This document shows, piece by piece, positions 2,710-44,195 of a stretch of DNA of 64,000 nt. The DNA comes from Planctomycetota bacterium (GTDB lineage Bacteria > Planctomycetota > Planctomycetia > Pirellulales > Pirellulaceae): assembly GCA_029979005.1 (NCBI GenBank), contig JAPOIJ010000002.1:2302-66301 (forward strand), read 5' to 3'. How positions within the stretch are numbered: position 1 is the first letter of the stretch; each line of letters starts with the position of its first letter. The notes beneath the pieces are model-generated. The model did not search any database. It was not told the origin of the DNA and worked only from the letters and a program-made list of their open reading frames with translations. The position numbers were made by a program, and so were the translations under genes.

Positions 2710-2799
2710 GAGTGAGCTCCGCGAGGGGGAGCCGTGAATTGGGTCAGGCCTGAAATATGGAGCAGCCCTAAGCGGGGTACTCTTGTGCGGGGCTCTCTC
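2710..2799 (+). ncRNA. ffs: Signal recognition particle RNA (bacterial small SRP, 4.5S)
   Basis: Helix-8 signature CCGTGAA..GGGTCAGG-CC...GG-AGCAGCCC; closing stem GAGCTCCGC (2714-2722) pairs with GCGGGGCTC (2787-2795); T9 run at 2809-2817; the ffs-dnaX-ybaB-recR order is established in many bacteria. Confidence 0.88.
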
Positions 2800-2997
2800 G
2801 TCCGCAGATTTTTTTTTGCCAGCGTTGCGAAATCGAATTTTTCGGTAATTTTCACAGCGCCAACGGCGTGTTTTTTCGGACACGTTGCAAAGAGTCGCAT
2901 TTCAGCTAGATCGGGACCTACTCGTTGGCCAAGTGAATCGGTTAGAATTGGGGCTCGCCAACGACGCGAGCTCATTTCTACGGCCAATGGTTTTGTG

Positions 2998-4911
2998 ATG
3001 AATTCACCTTCGCCCACCGATGACGGACAATATAAAGTTGTCGCACTTAAATACCGCCCCCAATTGTTTGGAGAGTTGGTTGGGCAAAGTCACATTGCGA
3101 CCGCATTATCGAATGCGATTGACAAGAATCGCGTTGGTCATGCGTATCTGTTCACAGGTGCCCGCGGGGTTGGGAAAACCTCGTCAGCGCGAATTTTTGC
3201 AAAGTGTCTTAATTGTGTTGAGGGGCCAACAAAAACTCCTTGCGGGAAATGTGGTATTTGCGAAGCCGTTTCTGCTGGTGACGATGTTGATGTTCTGGAA
3301 ATTGACGGTGCGAGCAACCGGGGAATCGACGAGATTCGTTTGTTGCGATCCAATGCATCCGTTCGCCCCAGTCGTTGTAGGTATAAAATCTATATCATCG
3401 ACGAAGTGCACATGTTAACGATGCAAGCTTTTAATGCGCTGCTTAAGACGCTTGAAGAACCTCCGCCGCATGTCAAATTTATCTTTTGCACGACAGATCC
3501 TCAGAAGATACCGATTACGGTTTTATCGCGTTGTCAACGATTTGATTTTTCACCTGTTCAGACGAATGAAATCTCCAACCGCCTGTCCGAGATCGCAGCG
3601 AATGAGGGGGTGACTGCCGACGAACAAGCGTTGGCTTTGTTGGCTCGCCGTGCTAATGGATCTATGCGAGACAGTCAGTCATTACTTGAGCAACTTTTCT
3701 CGTTTTGCGGGAACTCTATTTCAGTGCAAGAAGTTCATGAGCTACTTGGCACTGCGGATATGGGCAGAATCGCTGAGATCTCAACTGCGATGGTAAATGC
3801 AGATCCCATGACTGCACTGAATTTAATCCATCATGGAATTACCGACGGTGTCGATGCTGGGCAAATGGCGGATCAGTTGCTGGGGTATTTCAGAGACATG
3901 ATGGTCGCGAGTGTCGATTGCAGTCCTGATACTTTTTTGAATTGCAGTGAAGCGGATCTTGAGCATTTGAAAACACTTTCCGATGCGATTGGTCTGGAAA
4001 CAATACTTACGATCGTACAGTTGCTTGATTCGGCAGTGGTTCGGATGCAGTCAAGCCTGCACGGACGGACGTTGCTGGAAGCGGCTGTGGTACGGGTTTG
4101 TAATCTCGAAAAACTGGAAGCCATTGCTGATTTGGTCGATCAGTTATCAGACCCCAAAAACAGCAAGGGTGCTGCAGTAAAGGCGCCGCGACAACGCGTT
4201 GAAATGAGACGAGTCGAAACCTCCGGGACGGTTGGTCAGGCGGCTCTAAAAAAAAACGAAATAGCACCTGATCCGGCTCCACAGTCGACAACGAGTGTGG
4301 CTGGCGAAACAGTGGCTCAAGATGATTCTGCAGCAAAACCGCCGGGCGGAGAGGTGTTGGAAGATGCGGGGATTGCCAAGGTAGGTAATGCTAACGTTTC
4401 TCCCGAACCAAAGGCGACGGGCATTCCGGAGATTCCGAGTGGAAGTCACGTTGCCAATGACTTGCCGAAAGCAGGCGGTGAAATAGTTTCCCCAACGGAT
4501 TCTCATTCGACGGATGCAGATGTTAGCTCGATCGAAGCGCGTTGGAAAACTGTTCTCGAAACGATGGGGGATATGACTGCCGAAATGGCCTCCAATTATG
4601 AATCGGTCGAACTTAAAGGGGCGGATCAGCTTTTGGTCACCTTGCGGGACAAGGCGAGTCGAGATCTCTGTATGAAGCCGGATCGTCGCAGTCGTTTTGA
4701 AGAAGCATTTGAAAAGGTAACCGATCGAACGGTTCGTGTTGAGTTTTTGGTTTCTCAAAACGTGATTGAAAGTCCGGCTCCGAAGCCTAAACTTACCCGT
4801 GCACAGCAGGTAAGGAAATTGCAAGATGTCGAATTGGTGAAACAGGCCATGGAATTATTTGATGCAGAAATAACAGGGTTTCGTGAACCTATGCCGTCGA
4901 AAAAGCGTTGA
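2998..4911 (+). CDS. dnaX: DNA polymerase III subunit gamma/tau
   Basis: YKVVALKYRPQ, Walker A GARGVGKT, zinc module C..C, IIDEVHML, SRCQRF. Start set at ATG 2998 because the longer ORF from 2734 overlaps the SRP RNA. Confidence 0.97.
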   Translation: MNSPSPTDDGQYKVVALKYRPQLFGELVGQSHIATALSNAIDKNRVGHAYLFTGARGVGKTSSARIFAKCLNCVEGPTKTPCGKCGICEAVSAGDDVDVLEIDGASNRGIDEIRLLRSNASVRPSRCRYKIYIIDEVHMLTMQAFNALLKTLEEPPPHVKFIFCTTDPQKIPITVLSRCQRFDFSPVQTNEISNRLSEIAANEGVTADEQALALLARRANGSMRDSQSLLEQLFSFCGNSISVQEVHELLGTADMGRIAEISTAMVNADPMTALNLIHHGITDGVDAGQMADQLLGYFRDMMVASVDCSPDTFLNCSEADLEHLKTLSDAIGLETILTIVQLLDSAVVRMQSSLHGRTLLEAAVVRVCNLEKLEAIADLVDQLSDPKNSKGAAVKAPRQRVEMRRVETSGTVGQAALKKNEIAPDPAPQSTTSVAGETVAQDDSAAKPPGGEVLEDAGIAKVGNANVSPEPKATGIPEIPSGSHVANDLPKAGGEIVSPTDSHSTDADVSSIEARWKTVLETMGDMTAEMASNYESVELKGADQLLVTLRDKASRDLCMKPDRRSRFEEAFEKVTDRTVRVEFLVSQNVIESPAPKPKLTRAQQVRKLQDVELVKQAMELFDAEITGFREPMPSKKR

Positions 4912-21179: not shown

Positions 21180-21779
21180 TCAGTCAAAAATTCCTTTCCC
21201 GAATTCTCCGGGTGATGTGCCTGATGATTCTTGTTCGGTGTTATTTCGCTGATTGTGCGGAGTAGGCGGAATATCGGTTCCCTGATCCTGTCGGATCCCT
21301 TCTGGTTGAGGGTTCGTTTGCTTTTGATGTGCGTTGTCATGCAGCGGTTTGGCAACGGTTTCCTCATTGAAGTCCTCATCGTATCGGGAGCGGTATCCTG
21401 GTTTCGAGGCGAGTTCAGTCTCGATATTCAGCTCTTTGATTACGCGATTTTGGATCATCTCACGGCATCTGGCATTAACTGGGTGCGCAATGTCGGCGTA
21501 GAGCTTAGCTCGTCCACCGGAATCATGTTCAATGTGGTCTGAATTCAATTGACTTCCACAATGATTGCAGAAGCTCGCTCTGAGGTGATTTTTGGTTCTG
21601 CACTTATAGCAATTCGATGTAAGCTTGCGGCTTGGCATCGCGACAAAAGGCCCATTGTTACCCTCGATGATTTTCAAATCTCGAACGACGAAACAATCGT
21701 CAAACGTGACACTGCAAAATCCTCTTAAGCGATCTTCGGCGCTTTCAATTAATTTAATTCTGACTTCCGTAATCTCCAT
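21180..21779 (-). CDS. spoVG: SpoVG family nucleic-acid-binding protein with zinc-ribbon insertion
   Basis: MEITEVRIKL..LRGFCSVTFDDCFVVRDLKIIEGNNGPFVAMPSRK, YADIAHPVN..R; insertion CYKC-x10-CNHC. Confidence 0.92.
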   Translation of the reverse strand: MEITEVRIKLIESAEDRLRGFCSVTFDDCFVVRDLKIIEGNNGPFVAMPSRKLTSNCYKCRTKNHLRASFCNHCGSQLNSDHIEHDSGGRAKLYADIAHPVNARCREMIQNRVIKELNIETELASKPGYRSRYDEDFNEETVAKPLHDNAHQKQTNPQPEGIRQDQGTDIPPTPHNQRNNTEQESSGTSPGEFGKGIFD

Positions 21780-21818
21780 TACGTGCTCCTTCGCGTGTTC
21801 CTCGTGTTGTTGGTTTAA

Positions 21819-22769
21819 TCAGGAGGCGATCCGTGTCAGTGTTTGAGTGAAAAAGACTCGAGTGTCAGGGAACCTCGCAGCAAGATATTGGGTCGCATGT
21901 CTTGCTGTACGAGTATTGGGGAAAACGCCGAAGTAACTCGATCCACTTCCACTCATTTGATGGCCGAGGCAATTCAGGCGGGAGAACTCTCTCTTTAAAT
22001 TTAGAAAAGTTTGGGTGATGATGGGACTGATTGGCTCAGCAAATTCTTGCAGTCGATTAAACATGGTGGTTCCCAGCGTATGCGGGTCAAGCCGCTGGAA
22101 GCTACTCATGAATTTACTGGAACCGAGAGGGCGGGTTGGGATGGTAACGCGGTTAAAAATAGATGCGGTAGGAATTCCAAAATCCGGTTTGGCGATGACA
22201 ACTGGTATGCCACAAGCCGATCGAATGGGTTCAATTTTTTCGCCGCGCCCACGACAAATCGCGGTGCCACCGTATAAGAAAAATGGAACATCACTGCCTA
22301 GTTCAGCAGCAACCTGCGATAACTGTTCACGATTCCAGTTAAGTCCCCAAAGTTGATTGCCAGCGAGTAACGCTGCTGCTGCGTTGCTGGACGCTCCTCC
22401 CAGGCCAGCGGCTGATGGGATTTGTTTTTCCAGCTCAACTGAAATACCGTCTTGGCAGCACTTGCCATGCGTTTGTTCGCGAGCAGTCTCGCGAAGCAGG
22501 GTCAGCGCTCGGATGATTAGGTTTCTCTGGTCATTGGGAATTGCGTCTTTTTCTTTCGGAAGGCTTCCAAGTTCCGGCGAGCGAATGCAAAGGCTAAAGT
22601 TCTCGTCCGGGCGACGGGTGAACCCGATTTGGTCAAAAATAGAAACAGTGGACATGACGGTTTCAAGTTCATGAAATCCATCAGGTCGGCGGTTCAGGAG
22701 TTCTAAGAACCAATTGATTTTGGCCGGCGCCGCAATCTCGATTTTGTTAATACTAGAACGCAAGAGCAT
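21819..22769 (-). CDS. ispE: 4-diphosphocytidyl-2-C-methyl-D-erythritol kinase
   Basis: APAKINWFL..RPDGFHELETVM, KQIPSAAGLGGASSNAAA, LGSDVPFF, MSGSGSS. Confidence 0.95.
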   Translation of the reverse strand: MLLRSSINKIEIAAPAKINWFLELLNRRPDGFHELETVMSTVSIFDQIGFTRRPDENFSLCIRSPELGSLPKEKDAIPNDQRNLIIRALTLLRETAREQTHGKCCQDGISVELEKQIPSAAGLGGASSNAAAALLAGNQLWGLNWNREQLSQVAAELGSDVPFFLYGGTAICRGRGEKIEPIRSACGIPVVIAKPDFGIPTASIFNRVTIPTRPLGSSKFMSSFQRLDPHTLGTTMFNRLQEFAEPISPIITQTFLNLKREFSRLNCLGHQMSGSGSSYFGVFPNTRTARHATQYLAARFPDTRVFFTQTLTRIAS

Positions 22770-35438: not shown

Positions 35439-37529
35439 CTAGTTTCCGGCAACATAAACCTTAAGCGATTTCAGCGGCAGGTCGCATGCTTGCTCGCTTG
35501 CGAGAACAGGACCATCGAAGTTGGGGTAGATGTCCCGGGGAGAATCGGCAGAGGTGTCAATGAAGAGTTTCCATCGTCTGGACTTGGCGAGTTCTGGAAT
35601 GACAAATTGCGCTGACTCGTGGCTTGAATTAAACATCAGCAGGACATCGCGTCCCAATGTGTCCGAGCCCCGATGTTCGAGTGGAGCGGCGAGTAGGCAC
35701 AGGATAGGCAGCGAGTCAACCTGCCAGTCGATGTTTGTACCATGCGGGTTATACCAGCTGACGTCGGGCCAGGAATCTTGACTGTCGGGAACTCCGGTTA
35801 AGAAATGGTGACGACGAACCGTTGGTTGTTGACGTCGAAATTCGATTAACGATCGGCAGAATCTAACGAGCTCTGCGTTTTTAGAAACTAAATTCCAATT
35901 TAGCCAAGAGATCTCGTTATCTTGGCAATAGGCGTTGTTGTTTCCTTGTTGAGTTCTTTGGAATTCGTCACCCGCGACCAGCATTGGCACACCCTGACTA
36001 AGCATGAGTGTGGTCAGCATGTTTTTTATTTGGCGAATCCGGAGTTGATTAACTCGTGGGTCTTCGGTTGGCCCTTCAACGCCAAAATTTTCACTATAGT
36101 TGTTGTTGTCGCCGTCACGGTTGTCTTCACCATTAGCGAGGTTTTGTTTTTCGCAGTAACTCACAAGATCGTTAAGGGTGAATCCGTCGTGCGATGTCAC
36201 AAAGTTGATACTGCAACAGGGAGGCCGACCTCCAGGTTGGTAAAGGTCGGCCGAACCAGCTAGGCGGGTCGCAAGTGGTCCCCGCGTCCCCTGATCCCCC
36301 CGCCAGTAGCCACGAATGTCATCTCGATAACGACCATTCCATTCAGCCCACCGATCATCCCCAAAAGAACCAACCTGGTAGGCGCCTGCAGCGTCCCAGG
36401 CTTCTGCAATGATCTTGGTATCTGCTAAAAGTGGGTCTTCACCAATCGCTTCGACAAGGGGTGGATTGGGGACTAGCTCGCCATTGCGATCGCGACTGAG
36501 AATTGATGCTAGATCAAATCGAAACCCATCGACGTGGTAGTTATGCACCCAGTGACGGAGGCAATGAAAGATCATTTCCCGAACAATGGGGTGGTTGCCG
36601 TTTATCGTGTTTCCGCAACCGGAGTAATTTTTGTAATTTCGCTGATCATTTTCCAGCATGTAGTAAACCGGATTCTCCAGTCCTTTAAAGCTTAGAACTG
36701 GGCCACGGTTGTTTCCTTCACAAGTATGGTTGAAGACGACATCGAGAATGACTTCAATGCCTGCTTCGTGCAATGACTTTACCATTTGTTTGAATTCAAC
36801 AACTTGGGAACCCGGTTTTGATCCCGCAGCATAACCTCGATGAGGGGCGAAGAATGCGAGAGGGTCATAGCCCCAGTAGTTGGGTTGTTCAGAATCGGTG
36901 CCGTCCATCGAGAGGATGGGAAATTCGTGAACGGGCATCAGTTCAACAGCGGTAACTCCTAATGACTGTAGGTAGGGTATTTTCTCGATGACTCCCAAAT
37001 AGGTTCCCGGATGCGATACACCACTGGAAGGATGTTGAGTAAAACCTTTTACGTGCATTTCATAAATGACGGACTCGGAAAGATCCCGTCGGAGATGGCG
37101 ATCTCCGCCCCAGTCGAAGTGGTCGTCGACAACGACACATTTGGGAGGCCGGATAATTCCGTCATGGCTGTGCTGAAACGTTCCAGCGAGTGCTTTTGCA
37201 TAAGGATCGATTAATCGCGCGTTGGGATGGAATCGAAGACCACGGTCCGGGTCGTTGGGCCCATTTGCCTGGAAATGATAAAGTTGGCCAAACGAGATCT
37301 GAGGAACGAAAATACTCCAGATGTCCCCCCACCGATCGCTGGCGGGGTCAAACGTGATGATTTCTGTCGGTTCGGTGTCTTCAACCGATTGGTAGAGCAG
37401 CAATCTCATTTCACTGGCGTGACGACTAAAGATGACAAACTGGACCCCGTCGTCATGAACGACCGCACCGTAAGGTAATTGGTGCGTGAATTGAAATTTT
37501 GGTAGAGGTTGCCGCATAGGAGTAAACAT
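35439..37529 (-). CDS. glgX: Glycogen debranching enzyme (isoamylase, GH13)
   Basis: IYEMHVKGFT, NYWGYDP, DVVFNHT, DGFRFDLA, IAEAWD, NFVTSHDGFTL, NAYCQDNEISW. Confidence 0.95.
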   Translation of the reverse strand: MFTPMRQPLPKFQFTHQLPYGAVVHDDGVQFVIFSRHASEMRLLLYQSVEDTEPTEIITFDPASDRWGDIWSIFVPQISFGQLYHFQANGPNDPDRGLRFHPNARLIDPYAKALAGTFQHSHDGIIRPPKCVVVDDHFDWGGDRHLRRDLSESVIYEMHVKGFTQHPSSGVSHPGTYLGVIEKIPYLQSLGVTAVELMPVHEFPILSMDGTDSEQPNYWGYDPLAFFAPHRGYAAGSKPGSQVVEFKQMVKSLHEAGIEVILDVVFNHTCEGNNRGPVLSFKGLENPVYYMLENDQRNYKNYSGCGNTINGNHPIVREMIFHCLRHWVHNYHVDGFRFDLASILSRDRNGELVPNPPLVEAIGEDPLLADTKIIAEAWDAAGAYQVGSFGDDRWAEWNGRYRDDIRGYWRGDQGTRGPLATRLAGSADLYQPGGRPPCCSINFVTSHDGFTLNDLVSYCEKQNLANGEDNRDGDNNNYSENFGVEGPTEDPRVNQLRIRQIKNMLTTLMLSQGVPMLVAGDEFQRTQQGNNNAYCQDNEISWLNWNLVSKNAELVRFCRSLIEFRRQQPTVRRHHFLTGVPDSQDSWPDVSWYNPHGTNIDWQVDSLPILCLLAAPLEHRGSDTLGRDVLLMFNSSHESAQFVIPELAKSRRWKLFIDTSADSPRDIYPNFDGPVLASEQACDLPLKSLKVYVAGN

Positions 37530-37833
37530 AGGTCGATTTTGACTCTCGTGGCAATCCCACCCTTTTTTTTCAAGCGTTTCTGCGGGGGTAGTGTCAGCTT
37601 AAGGGCGTATTAAACGCGCCGTCGACGGTTACATGGGGAGAATTTTTTCCGCGATTTCATGTAAATATTTCATTGGTTTTTTTGAAATGTCGCGCAGATT
37701 CACGTTGCGGGTAGTTTCAGTTGTTTAATTCGGCATGGTTGCCGGATTCAAGCCAATCGAGGAAACTATAGGCCAGTTATTTATCCGAAAAACAACCCAA
37801 CTCGCTGAGTTGGCCAGACTGATCCGCGAGCTA

Positions 37834-38907
37834 ATGACAGGCGTTTCCTATAAAGATTCCGGCGTTGACCTCGAAGTATACAACGAGGCGATGAAACGAC
37901 TTCCGAGGTTGATGCATCGGACCTTCTCGCCTCGTGTTCGGCAGCTCGATGGCGGATTTGCCGGACTGTTCCAATTGGACTTTGAAAGCAAGCTTTTTCG
38001 AAGAAATTATCAGGACCCCATGTTGGTTGCGTGTACCGACGGTGTCGGGACCAAGCTAAAACTGGCTCAGATGCTTAACAGCCACCGAACGGTGGGCATT
38101 GATTTGGTGGCGATGTGCGTTAACGACGCAATTTGTTGTGGGGCTGAGCCGCTGTTTTTCCTTGATTATGTGGCGATGTCCCACGATGACCCCGTTGCGC
38201 TTGAGCAAATTGTCAGTGGTATCAGCGACGGTTGTTTGGCTGCTGATTGTGCATTGTTGGGGGGGGAGACGGCGATCATGCCCGATCTCTACCAGCCGGG
38301 GGATTACGATTTGGCGGGCTTTTGTGTTGGTGTGGTCGAGCGAAATCATGTGATTGACGGCCATGCTATCACTGACGGAGATGTTGTGATTGGAGTTGCA
38401 TCGAGTGGTGTGCATTCCAACGGCTTTAGTCTCGTTCGTAAAATTGCATTCGATGTTGGGAAGAAAAAACCGGAAGATTTAATGGATGGTACCGATCTCT
38501 CAATAGGCGAGGTATTGATGGAACCAACCTTGATCTATACCAAAGCCATTCGCGATGTGCTGAGTCATTACAAAGTCAAGAACGTGGTTCACGGAATCGC
38601 GCATATTACAGGTGGTGGTCTCGAAGAAAATATCGAGCGAATCACCCCGGAGGGCATAGAGATTGATATCGATGGCCAAGCCTGGGAGCGTCCACCGGTG
38701 TTTGAATGGCTTCAAAAACTTGGGAAAGTAGAAACCGAGGAAATGTTCCGCGTGTTCAATATGGGGATTGGATTGGCAATGATCGTAAGTCCTTATTATG
38801 CCGATTCAATTCAGCGATCATTGAGTAAGCACGGACATGAGAACTGGGTAATCGGCACGGTTAAAGCAGGTGAGAAGCGAGTCACCGTGCACGACAAAAT
38901 GTTGTAA
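37834..38907 (+). CDS. purM: Phosphoribosylformylglycinamidine cyclo-ligase
   Basis: [66 protein letters not shown]. Confidence 0.97.
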
Positions 38908-38986
38908 TGGACTTGCGGTTCGGCACGTTTCTGCCGATGAAGTTGGCGCGCATTTCTCAACGGTTAGTCCGCTGTTTTCAGTCTGA

Positions 38987-41575
38987 TCACTTCGAAGCTT
39001 CGATAACTTCCTGAATTCTATCGAGGATCTTCATTGCCTCGGCTGGACCGAAAAGAGTATCGATCATGATCGCAGGCTCTTCCGGATAGTTCGGAGGATA
39101 AATCACGTTTACTGGAATAATGGAGCGGTTAACCCGCAATAAATCTAACGCGATTTCAGGTCTTCGTTTGGTGTCGTCAACTGAAATGAATTCAAAGTTT
39201 AGTTCTGCTAATTTCTTGAGAACGTCTGGATTCGAAAAGACACGCTTTTCGTTTACTTTGCAAGTCGGTCACCAATCAGCCGTGTAGTCAACCCAAATCG
39301 GACGGCCATTGTTCTTTAAGGTGTACTCGACTTTTCCCGGATTCCATTCTTGCCAACCGAGTCCGGCTACGTTTTGAGCACCGGTGGAAATCTGGTTTTT
39401 TGATTCCTCGACTGCTCCATAGCACATCCAAATTCCAATCGAGGCAATCACCAGAGGCAAGAGATAGCCAAAGGTCAATCGTTTTGAGAATTTAACACTT
39501 GATTCACTCCACTGTCCGTAGCAGTAGGCAGCAAGTGCGATGACTACGAGTGCCATCACGAGCCAGCTGAGTCCACTGACTCCTGTCTGTCCACCAAAGG
39601 CCTGCATAAAGAAAGCCACGGTTGCAAAAAGTGTGAATGCCATCGTCGCTTTGAAGGTTTCCATCCAAGGCCCGGGTTTGGGAAGTTTGTAAATTAGAGC
39701 CGGGAAGAACGAAAGCACGACGTAGGGTGATGAAATGCCCAATGCAAAAATGGTGAAAAGGAACATGGACGGCAGTGGATCCTGGGCCAGTGTATAGCTC
39801 ATCGCAGCACCTAAAAATGGACCCGAGCAGGGGGTTGCGATTAAAGTAGTGAGCACACCGGAAAGGAAGGAGCCAGTGTAACCTTTTTTCTGTCCACCAT
39901 CGACGCTCGAAAGGGATGTTCCAATCTCAAAAACACCCGCCATGTTTAATCCAAGAAGAAATAGCATGACGATAATGCCGCAGACGAAATATGGGTTGCC
40001 CATTTGAGCGCCCCAGTTAATTGCCTGACCAAACGAAAGCTTGACGAAAAGAACGGCTCCTCCGAGGATCCACATGGAAACAACCAGCCCAAACGCAAAG
40101 GCGATTCCGTGTTTGCGAATTTTCGCGGGTTCGCTGCCGGCCTGCATTACAAAGCCCATTACTTTTAGTCCGAGGACTGGAAATACACACGGCATGAGGT
40201 TGAGCAGCATCCCGCCAAAAAATGCTCCGAAGAGTGCGGTAATGAAGGTGGTTTTTCCAAGCGAACTAGTGCCTCCCGAGCCGACGGGGAATTTGTCAAG
40301 ATCTTCAAACAAGATGACTTTTTGTTTTTCGTCAGGGTCATAAAGGGTCTTCATGATTGCAATTTGTTCAGGCGAATCAGTAAGCAGGACGACTGGCTCG
40401 TCCTCCGTTTTGATTTCCTCGTCCCGTGCATCATCAGATGGGATTGAGCCCCCTGAAATCTCGTGCGGTTTGTTCGCGTTTTCAGCAGCTTCGTAAGAAG
40501 AGTCACTCCAGATCAGCGGGGCGGCGGCGACTTTTCCAAGGTTGAGCAATGCTGAGAATGCGATTCCAGTGGGTGGATCACAATGCGTTTCGTCACAGGT
40601 TTGAAGACCAAGAATTCCGCTAAACTGAAAAGGTTGCGTGGTTTTTGCGTTGCGAGGAATGGTGACGTAAAAACTAAGCGTGACGGGGTCGTAGTAGGCG
40701 AACATGGATTCCCCGAACGCTTCGCCAGCCTCCGGTTCTTCGGAGAGTTCCGGCCCCACGACACTCCAGCTGTTGGTTTCCGTCAGGCCCAGAATCATGG
40801 ACTTAATCTGGGTTTTTTCAAGGGAGTAAGAATAGACGTGCCAATCAATTGACGGTGTGATTGTGATTTCTAAGCGAGCCACGTCACCTGGTCGAAGTGG
40901 TTTGTCGGTGCCGGAGTTTCGAATGATTTGTCCACGAATGTTCGCGTGTGCACCACGAATCTTCCGGTCTTCGATTTTCAGTTCCGGCTGAATGAAATCC
41001 GGTGTGATTTTAAGGTCGTCATTAACGCCGTTGAACTTACTTTCGAGGTTGAATTCGAACTGTTTGCAATTGCCATTCGTTTCGCAGGTTTGCCCGCTGA
41101 TGACCAAATTAATCACTAATTTATCTGGGTTGATTTCAGTTGCAATTTCAAATGGAGCGGACCAAGAGACGCTGTTTTCAAATTCTTCACAGGGATTGTC
41201 AAATCCTTCTTCATTGACGATGTGCGGTTCTCTGTCCGGGCGGAACTTGCCGAGTAATTTGAAATCATCAGACTCACCTACACTAATACTCGTGGGGATA
41301 GGGCCATTTGTATCTTTCATTGAGAAGACATGCCAATTGGGAATGATATCGGCAGTGACTGTCAAAATCCCTTGGCGCGTGCCCGTGAGTATTTGAAAGC
41401 TGGTAGTGGCAGAAACTGGATCACTCGACTGAATGCTTCCAAACGGATCTAACTGATCTTGGAGAAAGAGGCCTTGCTCTTGTCCCCGGCAGGAGTTGTT
41501 TTTTTCTAAGCCGCAAAGAGCGAATGCTAAAAAGGCGAAGCAGAGAATGTAGTGACGGTTCAATAGTGACTGCAT
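38987..41575 (-). CDS. dsbD: DsbD-family thiol:disulfide interchange protein, probable selenoprotein (in-frame UGA at 39269-39271, 862 aa)
   Basis: Signal peptide; two N-terminal DsbD domains (QTCETNGNC, QTCDETHC); TM domain with LMPCVFPVL and ATPCSGPFL; thioredoxin domain VDYTADW-TGA-PTCKVNEKRVF continuing 93 codons to TGA 38987-38989 (translated by hand). Confidence 0.88.
39233..39251 (-). promoter_or_regulatory. Putative bacterial SECIS element
   Basis: Perfect 7-bp stem CGAAAAG/CTTTTCG with loop CGTGT, spanning +18 to +36 after the UGA; G is the second loop base and is followed by U. Confidence 0.65.
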
Positions 41576-41864: not shown

Positions 41865-42536
41865 TTATTTCTTTTTGGGTGTCGGCTTGGAAGCAGCATT
41901 AGATTTTTTGTCGGTTGGTTCAAAAAATCCGGCGAATTTCGCTGTCGTCTTTTTGCCGGAAATTGGCAGGCATGTCGTCTCGTCACATACTTGCCCGTCG
42001 ACCTCAAGTTGGATCGTCAATTCTTTGGCAGCGAGTGTTTCGTTTAGTTTTATTGGGATGAAAAACTGGACCACTCCGGAATGTTTCTCTAACCGCTTGC
42101 CAAAATCGGGATCGCTTTCAATGATTTTTGGCTTTTGATCCGGCGCAAAGGACTTCTTACCGGTTAATGAAAAATGAGGCGAGGGAGTGACTTTGATCGT
42201 TGTTTTTACGAAAGGCTCGGGTTGAGTGAGCGAGTAGATATAGCTGTTGTTGGGGAGTTCGAACTTGACAATCAAAAAACCCTCAGCGGATCCCTTTTTG
42301 AGATGAAATCGTGATGAGAGTCGAAAGGGTTTTTCAGCGTCCTCAGTCGTCCGCTCTTTAATCGGGCTGGTCGAGGTTTCCTGGGGCGCGAGCCTTACCT
42401 TGGTGTAAGGTGAGGCTGTCGTATTCAAAGGGATTGCTTGGGTTGAACTTGTGACAGGCCCAGGAGTCTGGCAATAGAACAGAACGATCGCGGTTAACGC
42501 GAAAGCGATAGGAGATATCAATGATTGAAACTGCAT
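41865..42536 (-). CDS. Stand-alone DsbD N-terminal-domain protein, exported
   Basis: Signal peptide, VKFELP..SYIYSL, EKHSGVVQF..PI, QVCDETTCLP Cys pair; upstream of dsbD on the same strand. Confidence 0.8.
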   Translation of the reverse strand: MQFQSLISPIAFALTAIVLFYCQTPGPVTSSTQAIPLNTTASPYTKVRLAPQETSTSPIKERTTEDAEKPFRLSSRFHLKKGSAEGFLIVKFELPNNSYIYSLTQPEPFVKTTIKVTPSPHFSLTGKKSFAPDQKPKIIESDPDFGKRLEKHSGVVQFFIPIKLNETLAAKELTIQLEVDGQVCDETTCLPISGKKTTAKFAGFFEPTDKKSNAASKPTPKKK

Positions 42537-42910: not shown

Positions 42911-43264
42911 ATGATTATTTTTCTTACAGCGGATCTGATGATGGCCTCTACGGCGAGTTCACATGCTCGGCAAAACAATGTGACTCTGCAAACAGCGACC
43001 AGTGCTGAGGCGGCAATGGCGTTGGTCAAGGAAGCCCGCCCCCATCTGTTTTTGGTGGACTTACAAGTGCCAGGGTTGGGGATCACAGAATTGGGCGATG
43101 CGGTGCGAGGCCTACCCGATGCTCTTTGTCCAATGACGATAGCCTATGCTCAGCATGTCAATTTGGAGTCCTTGGACGAGGCACGTCGAGCTGGATTTGA
43201 CCAGGTTTTAACTCGTGGTCAGTTTAATCAGCAAGTTGGTACCATTATTGCTGACGCGAAGTGA
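42911..43264 (+). CDS. Atypical single-domain receiver (CheY-like) protein
   Basis: IIFLTADLM, ARPHLFLVDL, IAYAQHV, ARRAGFDQVLTRG; receiver-like pattern. Confidence 0.65.
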   Translation: MIIFLTADLMMASTASSHARQNNVTLQTATSAEAAMALVKEARPHLFLVDLQVPGLGITELGDAVRGLPDALCPMTIAYAQHVNLESLDEARRAGFDQVLTRGQFNQQVGTIIADAK

Positions 43265-43292: not shown

Positions 43293-44195
43293 TCAACTAT
43301 TTTGGTCGAAGAGACTGTCATTGTAAGCGAATACAGAAACTCCGAGTTTTTCCGCGACACGAATCGTTTCGTTCTGCTCAAGTATAATCGTGCGATCGGC
43401 TTCGATTGCAAGAACGCTTCCACCCTCGTGGGCAATGGTTTCAATGGTACCAACTCCAATGGTCGGTACATCGAACCGCATGTCTTGGTTCGGTTTGGAT
43501 ACCTTAACCACCGTAAACCCACCGGAGCAAAGGTTCCCGGCTCTGGCAATACACTGATCGGTTCCTTCGATGGCTTCGACAGCCAACACTGCTTGATTTT
43601 TAACGACGACGGTTTGCCCAATATCTAAGGCTCCCATTGCTTTGGCCATTTGCCAGCCGAATCGAATGTCCTTTAATTGGCTGTTGTTGGGTTGGTTCTT
43701 TGTCAGCGGCCCTGCTTTCACCAGTAACTCCGGAGCAAAATCAGTTGCGGGGGAAAATGTGATTCCTTCTGATTTGTACAATTCAACGACTGTGCTGAGG
43801 AGAGTGTCGTCCCGACGATCTTTCGATTTTGAAAGAATGATTGGGTAGAAATGTCGCCAAAATACCAAATCAGGAAAGTGCGTTATCAAGCTGGATTTTT
43901 TTTGAAACAGAAGCGTTTTGAATATTTTGCCAGCCATGGTGGCGTGTGCCACCCCCGCTTTGCGGAAAAAACGGCACTGGCCACCCATACGTGCCATGCC
44001 AAATACACGATAAGACGTGCAAATATCTTTTAACACAGGGTCGGCATGGTCTTTAATTCCCGTGCAGTGAACTTCGTAGCCCTGAGCCATTAGCGTCCGT
44101 GCGATGCAGACAGGGAAATGCCCCCAGCCTGCGACCAAGCCGATTTTTTTGGTTGCGAGGTTAGCTAAATTGGTATCTTGAGTTACTGTGGCCAT
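43293..44195 (-). CDS. lpxI: LpxI family UDP-2,3-diacylglucosamine diphosphatase
   Basis: IGLVAGWGHFP, LDIGQTVVV, LAVEAIEGTD, KPNQDMRFDVPTIG. Confidence 0.92.
   Translation of the reverse strand: MATVTQDTNLANLATKKIGLVAGWGHFPVCIARTLMAQGYEVHCTGIKDHADPVLKDICTSYRVFGMARMGGQCRFFRKAGVAHATMAGKIFKTLLFQKKSSLITHFPDLVFWRHFYPIILSKSKDRRDDTLLSTVVELYKSEGITFSPATDFAPELLVKAGPLTKNQPNNSQLKDIRFGWQMAKAMGALDIGQTVVVKNQAVLAVEAIEGTDQCIARAGNLCSGGFTVVKVSKPNQDMRFDVPTIGVGTIETIAHEGGSVLAIEADRTIILEQNETIRVAEKLGVSVFAYNDSLFDQNS

Follow-up and report, generated by a model that had tools for sequence, protein, structure and literature searches.

The window analysed here is a 64-kb stretch of DNA from a Planctomycetota bacterium, and this report concerns a gene on its minus strand that encodes a DsbD-type protein and is interrupted by an in-frame TGA (all coordinates are those of the window). 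A 768-codon open reading frame (ORF; 41575..39272) that ends in ...VDYTADW (in a longer stretch, GRPIWVDYTADW) runs into a TGA at 39271..39269, and past this codon the same frame continues for 93 codons, beginning with PTCKVNEKRVFSN and ending with EVIEASK (the longer stretch of the continuation reads PTCKVNEKRVFSNPDVLKK...IQEVIEASK), up to a TGA at 38989..38987. An earlier note on this DNA had proposed that the two parts form a single 862-residue DsbD in which the first TGA specifies selenocysteine (Sec) in place of the first cysteine (Cys) of a WCxxC motif; translation confirms both the continuation of the frame and the length of the read-through product, 862 amino acids. The features on which the argument turns are as follows.

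38987..41575, minus strand: complete gene of the putative Sec-containing DsbD (Sec-DsbD), 862 codons plus the terminal TGA at 38989..38987
39269..39271, minus strand: in-frame UGA, read here as Sec769, the first (nucleophilic) position of a U-P-T-C active site, from alignment to the first Cys of E. coli DsbD-gamma and from TGA in 77 of 80 species loci
39260..39262, minus strand: TGC for Cys772, the putative resolving Cys of UxxC, an invariant Cys column (TGC 47 and TGT 31 in relatives)

When proteins of solved structure were searched with phmmer, ADW-[TGA]-PTC-K aligned with ADW-C-VAC-K of the E. coli DsbD-gamma domain (7aye, 1uc7, 2fwe and 1vrs; E ~6e-7). Therefore the TGA lies exactly at the first active-site Cys, the position that the earlier note had given it.

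The in-frame TGA, taken by itself, could reflect a genome-wide reassignment of UGA to an amino acid, of the code 4 or code 25 type, and nothing else in the window speaks for this. Since TGA also terminates nine other ORFs of at least 250 amino acids in the window, in addition to the Sec-DsbD gene itself, there is no global reassignment, and we count this explanation as already refuted; the earlier note had argued likewise from TGA at the ends of other genes. A scan of the window for TGA codons flanked on either side by long open frames returned the Sec-DsbD gene and, apart from it, only trivially adjacent genes that share a frame. For example, the TGA at 21821 (21180-22769, minus strand) was considered as the site of a second selenoprotein and rejected, as an ispE-like gene (21819..22769) is followed there by a spoVG-like gene in the same frame (21180..21779; both names were judged from the sequences).

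A sequencing or assembly error, or a nonsense mutation that has turned the gene of this one strain into a pseudogene, would also place a TGA at this position. The region 38700-39900 is present in at least 20 metagenome runs from 12 studies, and the 251 nucleotides (nt) at 39150-39400 show no differences in the Logan contigs of four runs from four studies (9-16x word depth), so the TGA is not an assembly error. In addition, the product of the neighbouring purM gene is encoded residue for residue on contigs in at least 53 blocks of the assembly collection, and among the matches listed the adjacent DsbD is called at 768 amino acids in six places. Because the sequence recurs in this way across metagenome runs and collection contigs, the organism of the window is a cosmopolitan marine bacterium that has not been cultured; among species representatives, the closest is the Mariniblastus sp. 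metagenome-assembled genome (MAG) WTFU01000121.1, with 98% identity over the gamma region. The observation that favours an error comes from a related contig (ENA contig_20449, locus L003, >90% amino acid identity), in which the Sec codon carries an additional G (TGG-G-TGA, positions 4330-4345). This contig belongs to an error-prone long-read assembly with frameshifts throughout, in which purM and DsbD are broken up into numerous short ORFs, and the extra G is not a biological variant. With the four identical assemblies, the same protein context in the collection blocks and TGA in 77 of 80 species, the explanation by error or strain-specific mutation is counted as already refuted, and the two scenarios that the earlier note had raised, reads with TGC and a TGA in this strain alone, are excluded.

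The active-site codon and the frame beyond it

A scan of one genome per GTDB species yielded 80 loci with 39-98% amino acid identity to the gamma region, from Pirellulaceae, Mariniblastus and Stieleria and from Akkermansiaceae and Verrucomicrobiales. The active-site codon in these loci is TGA in 77 cases, TGC in two and TGT in one, and in no case TAA or TAG, whereas the true terminal stop of the same genes is TAA in 40, TAG in 26 and TGA in 10. The mixture at the terminal stop, set against the absence of TAA and TAG from the active-site codon, excludes ordinary termination at this position, and the alternation of TGA, TGC and TGT for which the earlier note had proposed a test is present, though heavily skewed towards TGA. 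Apart from loci truncated at a contig end, all have 85-114 open codons after the TGA. Among the closer relatives, the ratio of non-synonymous to synonymous substitution rates (dN/dS) is 0.04-0.16 for the 90 codons after the TGA, compared with 0.02-0.08 for the 90 codons before it, and this purifying selection past the TGA indicates that the downstream part is translated in this frame.

These data bear directly on the proposal that the TGA is a genuine stop, which would leave a 768-residue protein with alpha and beta domains and make the gamma domain either a decaying remnant or the separately translated half of a split gene. All public gene callers annotate the gene in this way, and protein databases contain fragments that start MNEKRVF, VNEKRVF or MTCIFNEK. 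However, a stop at this position would be expected to vary between TAA, TAG and TGA like the terminal stop, and the low dN/dS of the 90 downstream codons does not fit a decaying remnant. Separate translation is also hard to reconcile with internal starts that are called at different places in different species, with a first available start in the window (TTG 39139) that would remove the whole active site, and with a gamma domain that could not work once its first strand and its nucleophile were gone. We therefore regard a genuine stop as highly improbable.

The break in the gene recurs in public data. Most matches of the first protein search were orphan ORFs of 82-106 amino acids that start just past the active site (MNEKRVFSN..., MTCIFNEKRVFSN...), which points to the same gene break in other genomes, and in the related loci L001 and L002 the DsbD call ends at W-TGA with an in-frame xxC immediately after it. 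In the public assemblies examined, the gene is cut at 768 amino acids and the catalytic thioredoxin domain is either missing or annotated as a separate orphan ORF (82-106 amino acids), so the truncation by standard callers that the earlier note had predicted does occur; as a consequence of this cut, DsbD looks incomplete in well over a hundred species of the Planctomycetota, Verrucomicrobiota and Chlamydiota (PVC) group. Matches with at least 43% identity in the protein collection nearly all cover just the 68% of the query that precedes the TGA, and full-length Cys-type proteins are mostly no more than 39% identical to it. The exceptions form a small Cys-type group (P0011, at 55% identity, P0030 and P0009) that reads VDYTAEW-C-PTC-QVNEKRVFSN and carries WC[LPA]TC. 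Judged from these sequences, Sec and Cys forms alternate inside one subfamily, as is usual for selenoproteins.

A DNA-motif scan with the pattern DYTAxW-TGA-xx-TGY-xx-AAY-G extended the distribution to at least 119 contigs, nearly all titled Planctomycetota or Verrucomicrobiota, and the frame is open for 85-114 codons in 115 of the 115 uncut cases. Among the carriers are two cultured strains, Stieleria marina K23_9 (NZ_CP036526.1) and Persicirhabdus sediminis KCTC 22039 (NZ_JAENIM01), as well as the complete chromosomes of a Mariniblastus (OZ253677.1) and a Rubritalea MAG (OZ253479.1); a few short contigs binned as Pseudodesulfovibrio, Vicinamibacteria, Crocinitomicaceae and Oligoflexales are probably mis-binned. 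For Stieleria, the read-through ORF is predicted at 959 amino acids, and in the Stieleria locus L012 the active site reads ADW-U-PTCK. A second Sec-DsbD subfamily was found in nine Verrucomicrobiales MAG loci (L181, L208, L220, L237, L253, L254, L260, L270 and L292), with the active site DYTAVW-U-A[VI/T]C and a frame that is open for 97-98 codons after the TGA. In addition, Mariniblastus sp. g4_MAG_00002 has two Sec-DsbD copies on two contigs (L053 and L064).

The downstream hairpin and the selenocysteine machinery

Just downstream of the in-frame codon, the transcript can form a short hairpin that resembles a bacterial Sec insertion sequence (SECIS).

39233..39251, minus strand: putative bacterial SECIS hairpin, 5' arm CGAAAAG (39251..39245), loop CGUGU (39244..39240), 3' arm CUUUUCG (39239..39233)

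The hairpin begins 17 nt past the UGA, has a 7-bp stem and a 5-nt loop, and its loop starts 24 nt past the UGA. The published model of bacterial SECIS elements has a loop of 3-9 nt, a stem of 4-16 bp, 16-37 nt between UGA and loop, a G in the first two loop positions that is usually followed by G or U, and an energy cut-off of -7.5 kcal/mol (PMC13188914); the hairpin of the window agrees with all four structural elements of this model (loop size, stem, loop G then U, and spacing).

Conservation of the pairing was assessed in a gap-free alignment of 69 distinct Sec-type sequences. Standard pairs occupy 94.8% of the stem cells, whereas shifting the 3' partners by 1-3 columns lowers this share to 35-63%. 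Five of the seven pairs show compensatory changes on both sides, and the covariation score of 0.444 is not attained by any of 500 shuffles (which score 0.236). Shared ancestry inflates all of these counts, so that independent compensatory events are clearly fewer than the cell counts. The hairpin-forming codons encode a conserved N-E-K-R-V-F-S, and several of the compensations join one synonymous change to another, namely Glu GAA/GAG with Phe UUU/UUC and Asn AAC/AAU with Ser UCG/UCA; at the closing pair, C-G takes the place of G-C where Lys is replaced by Ser or Gly. The loop is CGTGT in 101 of 118 matches from the motif scan.

Other observations on the hairpin are independent of the inflation by shared descent. 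In the two copies of Mariniblastus sp. g4_MAG_00002, the corresponding position holds a hairpin whose stem is unrelated in sequence (GAAGCGA-GUC-UCGCUUC) and which encodes N-E-A-S-L-A-S rather than N-E-K-R-V-F-S, and the second subfamily has the hairpin GAACA-GUU-UGUUC, in which the loop opens with G-U ~23 nt after the UGA. Conversely, the Cys-type locus L026 has no hairpin, and the Cys-type loci L030 and L031 lack the CGUGU loop. Because L030 and L031 keep a remnant of the stem around a 7-nt loop without CGUGU, their sequences look like a recent Sec-to-Cys conversion and not like the ancestral state.

The stem consists of Glu-Lys codons (GAR AAR) that pair with the near-reverse-complement Phe-Ser codons (UUY UCN), and E. 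coli DsbD has E-K-x-x-F-S at this place; as a speculation, an ancestral Cys protein may have been predisposed to evolve a SECIS at such a site. A conserved lower stem (GACUU after the UGA with a downstream AAGUU or AAGUC) was also considered, but it pairs in some relatives and not in the window and was dropped.

Incorporation of Sec would also need the corresponding machinery. As the earlier note had stated, no sel genes lie in the window: tblastn with E. coli SelA, SelB and SelD found no selA, selB or selD homologue in the 64 kb, and ARAGORN found no tRNA gene there. The same tblastn search against all DsbD loci found the start of a SelB in one locus only.

3417-3925 of locus L047 (a verrucomicrobial MAG; same contig as L257): start of selB, in the sole locus with selB adjoining Sec-DsbD

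In this locus (contig CALFVL010000088.1), the SelB ORF has the same orientation as Sec-DsbD and starts ~330 nt past the stop of that gene; it begins MARHFIIGTAGHIDHGKSTL...DRLPEEKERGVTIELGF and runs off the contig end. Between the two genes lies an 82-residue ORF that is possibly IF1-like by sequence. With the CALFVL01 SelB as query, full-length SelBs were found that align to residues 1-606 of E. coli SelB, and in six cases a full-length SelB and a Sec-DsbD occur in the same assembly (JBNACB01, JALZUH01, CAXLMQ01, JAQXBQ01, CAJJBQ01 and Rubritalea OZ253479.1). With CALFVL01, where the adjoining SelB is contig-cut, co-occurrence thus extends to seven verrucomicrobial assemblies, in which SelB alone was looked at.

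Equivalent searches were made for the Planctomycetota carriers. A contig scan with the CALFVL01 SelB fragment gave no Pirellulaceae among the 600 matches listed; a profile of 13 PVC SelBs, run against the protein collection, gave matches of which the best 120 of 7982 were all of high-GC composition and none lay on the Stieleria or Mariniblastus chromosomes; and a search with the C-terminal part of one SelB matched only itself. ARAGORN detected no tRNA-Sec in any DsbD locus. When the tRNA-Sec sequences from L097, L100 and L147 were compared with four metagenome runs (X1-X4), a few PVC-like fragments were found, none common to all four, and their depths (2.7-14.4) do not track those of the Mariniblastus contigs (9.1, 10.7, 16.3 and 11). 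Some Planctomycetes, including a Rhodopirellula, do have complete selA/B/C/D sets (PMC4807772), and the Rhodopirellula SelB is very divergent (PMC4807772 and supplement), which would explain the failure to find SelB in Planctomycetota carriers. The selenoprotein candidates of Planctomycetes P1 and P2 in S9 Table of that study include no DsbD (PMC4807772).

Several of these results weigh against the decoding of this UGA as Sec. The 51 nt past the UGA fold to just -5.5 kcal/mol, with the hairpin as the sole structure, and so miss the cut-off of -7.5 kcal/mol, and the fold of 81 nt (-12.7 kcal/mol, z = +0.64 against shuffles) is no better than random. No Rfam family matches at the hairpin, even at E up to 10, and the covariation is subject to the shared ancestry noted above. 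In addition, the searches, which did not reach the rest of the window's genome, detected none of selA, selB, selC and selD in the organism of the window or in a carrier from the Pirellulaceae. The energy threshold is a heuristic and not a biological requirement; the hairpin copy in the window is A-U rich, and relatives with a G-C-richer GAGAAG stem mostly reach ~-6 to -17 kcal/mol in 51-nt folds. To our knowledge Rfam has no general bacterial SECIS model, so the null result from that database is uninformative.

The failure to find the machinery in this organism also lends some support to a selenium-free read-through of the UGA, in which a near-cognate tRNA (Trp, Cys or Arg), perhaps aided by the hairpin, would produce a full-length DsbD that is not a selenoprotein; such read-through would equally account for an open, selected downstream frame and a conserved hairpin. 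However, the recoding falls precisely on the catalytic Cys, a position at which no residue other than Cys or Sec functions, and the sole alternative codons seen are Cys codons. Furthermore, the hairpin has a loop (G-U) and a spacing of the SelB type (PMC13188914), Verrucomicrobiota carriers have SelB, once adjoining the gene, and low-level read-through would leave most of the product inactive. For these reasons we give selenium-free read-through only a slim chance.

Based on the position of the TGA, the codon contrast, the selection on the downstream frame, the covarying hairpin, the independent assemblies and the presence of SelB in related carriers, we propose with a probability of about 0.9 that the UGA at 39271..39269 specifies Sec in place of the first Cys in the active site of the thioredoxin domain. 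This comparative evidence, in particular the codon alternation, the selected downstream frame and the SECIS-type hairpin, thus supports the Sec-containing DsbD with a UxxC active site that the earlier note had proposed.

Protein architecture and proposed mechanism

The read-through product was searched against Pfam with U replaced by C, and its organization was compared with that of 21 aligned read-through proteins. In order, it comprises a signal peptide, two alpha-like domains (alpha1 and alpha2), a membrane (beta) domain with eight transmembrane (TM) segments and a thioredoxin-type gamma domain.

41066..41401, minus strand: first N-terminal alpha-like domain, amino acids 59-170, with Cys164-x5-Cys170; a weak assignment (DsbD_N 12.8 bits, E 0.13, below cutoff)
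40565..40891, minus strand: second N-terminal DsbD-alpha-like domain, amino acids 229-337, with Cys327-x4-Cys332; DsbD_N above cutoff and a conserved Cys pair
39422..40237, minus strand: membrane (beta) domain, amino acids 447-718, with eight predicted TM segments; DsbD_TM, hydropathy and invariant Cys columns
39092..39322, minus strand: DsbD-gamma thioredoxin-fold domain, amino acids 752-828; PF13899 and DsbD-gamma chains of the Protein Data Bank (PDB), split by the Sec codon in standard calls

Three Pfam models score above their cutoffs, namely DsbD_N (PF11412; amino acids 229-337, 29 bits, cutoff 25), DsbD_TM (PF02683; amino acids 448-657, 56.1 bits, cutoff 27.1) and Thioredoxin_7 (PF13899; amino acids 752-828, 52.9 bits, cutoff 27), the last of which straddles the TGA. 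PF13899 is a better model for the gamma domain than PF13098, which reaches 25.0 bits against a cutoff of 27. The alignment of the 21 proteins contains exactly eight conserved Cys/Sec columns (C164/C170, C327/C332, C463, C583 and U769/C772), of which C463 and C583 are invariant. Hydropathy predicts a signal peptide and places the eight membrane segments, an even number as expected if both soluble regions are periplasmic, at amino acids 447-718, with C463 in TM1 and C583 in TM4, a segment that is below the hydropathy threshold and was assigned by eye.

The N-terminal periplasmic region of ~430 amino acids contains both alpha-like Cys-pair domains. The Cys164/Cys170 pair is kept in 15-16 of the 21 aligned relatives, some relatives have just one of the two domains, and a PDB sequence search with the N-terminal 341 amino acids gave no meaningful match. 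Among NCBIfam models, PRK00293 (E. coli-type DsbD) scores 116.8 bits against a cutoff of 330, which places the protein outside the enterobacterial subfamily, and the best match is TsoB (NF045694; amino acids 437-813, 143.9 bits against a cutoff of 805), with no match to rhodanese. The product of the gene is very probably a complete envelope disulfide reductase of the DsbD type, with three modules, 862 amino acids and W-U-P-T-C in its gamma domain.

A working mechanism can be drawn by analogy with E. coli DsbD, in which periplasmic alpha, membrane beta and periplasmic gamma domains each carry a redox pair of a cascade (PMC3322552). The UGA would be read by Sec-tRNA(Sec) delivered by SelB, and SelB would be recruited by the in-gene hairpin CGAAAAG-CGUGU-CUUUUCG. 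In the resulting protein, cytoplasmic thioredoxin would reduce the membrane pair C463/C583, this pair would in turn reduce the selenenylsulfide U769-C772 of the gamma domain, and the Sec selenolate would attack the disulfide or disulfides of the alpha-like domains (C327/C332 and C164/C170), which would pass electrons to periplasmic substrates. Sec769 occupies the position of E. coli Cys461, which reportedly forms the gamma-alpha mixed disulfide in PDB 1VRS (a 1vrs chain was among the structure matches). Sec would be a better nucleophile and a better leaving group than Cys, and on such general selenium chemistry it would be expected to speed both exchange steps, the attack and the resolution of the mixed Se-S bond. 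In this scheme we infer that Sec is in fact inserted, that electrons flow in this direction and that Sec confers a kinetic benefit.

Known relatives, wider significance and neighbouring genes

Selenoproteins of this kind are already known. Kryukov & Gladyshev reportedly predicted a 'thiol:disulfide interchange protein' selenoprotein family in 2004, and we take cd02953, a conserved-domain model used in a later ocean survey, to be the DsbD-gamma model of CDD. The family has been tabulated as PF13098, UxxC, with WP_011366075.1 as its representative entry (PMC13188914 Table 1), and it occurs in Geobacter metallireducens, G. uraniumreducens and Syntrophus (PMC1794560); the Global Ocean Sampling survey listed 22 Sec sequences of a 'Trx-like 2' family (cd02953, UxxC; PMC2398784 Table 2). 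Like the protein of the window, the published family has Sec first in the UxxC of a thioredoxin domain that is probably of the DsbD-gamma type, has many Cys homologues, was predicted from Sec/Cys pairs together with a SECIS, and is present in marine metagenomes. In contrast, its named carriers are Deltaproteobacteria, whereas Sec is nearly fixed here in Pirellulaceae and Mariniblastus and in marine Akkermansiaceae and Verrucomicrobiales, and the window protein has two tandem alpha-like domains, a comparison made by descriptions only.

Comparison with other DsbD-related and Sec-containing proteins shows a similar mixture of shared and distinct features. E. coli DsbD (DipZ) shares the periplasmic alpha domain, the 8-TM beta domain with Cys in TM1 and TM4, and the periplasmic gamma domain with xxC at the same place; it differs in having Cys461 where the window protein has Sec, and one Cys-pair domain where the ~430-residue N-terminal region has two. 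ScsB likewise joins beta and gamma modules of DsbD type to an N-terminal periplasmic part that is longer and different (PMC3322552), and some Cys-type homologues of the query carry the JGI name 'suppressor for copper-sensitivity B', but ScsB, compared here by description, lacks Sec and has been described in Proteobacteria and Chlamydia. TsoB, a rhodanese/DsbD fusion-like protein, resembles the window protein in its DsbD-like TM and thioredoxin parts and is also a selenoprotein, but it contains UxxxxU with two Sec (PMC13188914), whereas the window protein has a single Sec in the gamma UxxC and no rhodanese domain; apart from TsoB, that review does not mention DsbD. The experimentally verified Sec-containing thioredoxin (UxxC, PF00085; PMC13188914 Table 1) also uses Sec as the attacking residue of a thioredoxin-fold UxxC, but as a soluble single-domain protein and not as the periplasmic module of a membrane electron relay.

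Therefore, the kind of selenoprotein is already known, and what is added here is a large, consistently mis-annotated PVC clade. We did not find a description of the full three-module membrane protein, of Sec nearly fixed in a PVC clade, of the tandem alpha domains or of the near-invariant SECIS, part of which may already be known.

A broader interpretation, which we offer tentatively and hold to be possible rather than probable, is that a clade of marine Planctomycetota and Verrucomicrobiota with a worldwide distribution (Mariniblastus, other Pirellulaceae, Stieleria and Rubripirellula; Akkermansiaceae, Rubritalea, Roseibacillus, Oceaniferula and Persicirhabdus) has Sec essentially fixed in its DsbD relay, so that its envelope reducing power would depend on selenium. 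The clade would have been overlooked since annotation pipelines split the gene, the SECIS would fix the peptide N-E-K-R-V-F-S, and the Sec-to-Cys reversions (L026, L030, L031 and the P0011 type) would represent escapes. If this is true, a selenolate sits at the hinge of a transmembrane disulfide cascade, and the envelope housekeeping of common marine heterotrophs is tied to the supply of selenium. Because close natural Cys revertants are available for comparison, the clade would lend itself to studying, in nature's own variants, what Sec contributes to thiol-disulfide exchange, and the two cultured carriers make the question testable. No new principle is involved, since selenoproteins with a thioredoxin-fold UxxC and those of the 'thiol:disulfide interchange protein' family have been catalogued, and a selenoprotein specialist would not be surprised.

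The genes around Sec-DsbD include one further DsbD_N-like gene.

41865..42536, minus strand: 223-residue secreted DsbD_N-like protein with a C-x4-C pair, directly upstream of DsbD; DsbD_N 23.3 bits, just under the cutoff of 25

L001 and L002 have this small gene in the same place relative to DsbD, and its product may be a stand-alone alpha-type carrier, a partner or a substrate. Beyond it are a single-domain response-regulator receiver (42911-43264, plus strand), a weak assignment at 23.9 bits, below cutoff, and LpxI (UDP-2,3-diacylglucosamine hydrolase; 43293-44195, minus strand), for which both domains are strong. Downstream of DsbD are purM (37735..38907) and then a glgX-type debranching enzyme (35439..37529), and the order of the genes neighbouring DsbD is conserved in L001, L002 and L003. 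Elsewhere in the window, a bacterial small signal recognition particle RNA is found at 2708-2806 on the plus strand (Rfam RF00169, 44.5 bits, gathering score 40); since the ORF at 2734..4911 (dnaX in the earlier note) overlaps this RNA, the true start of that gene lies further downstream.

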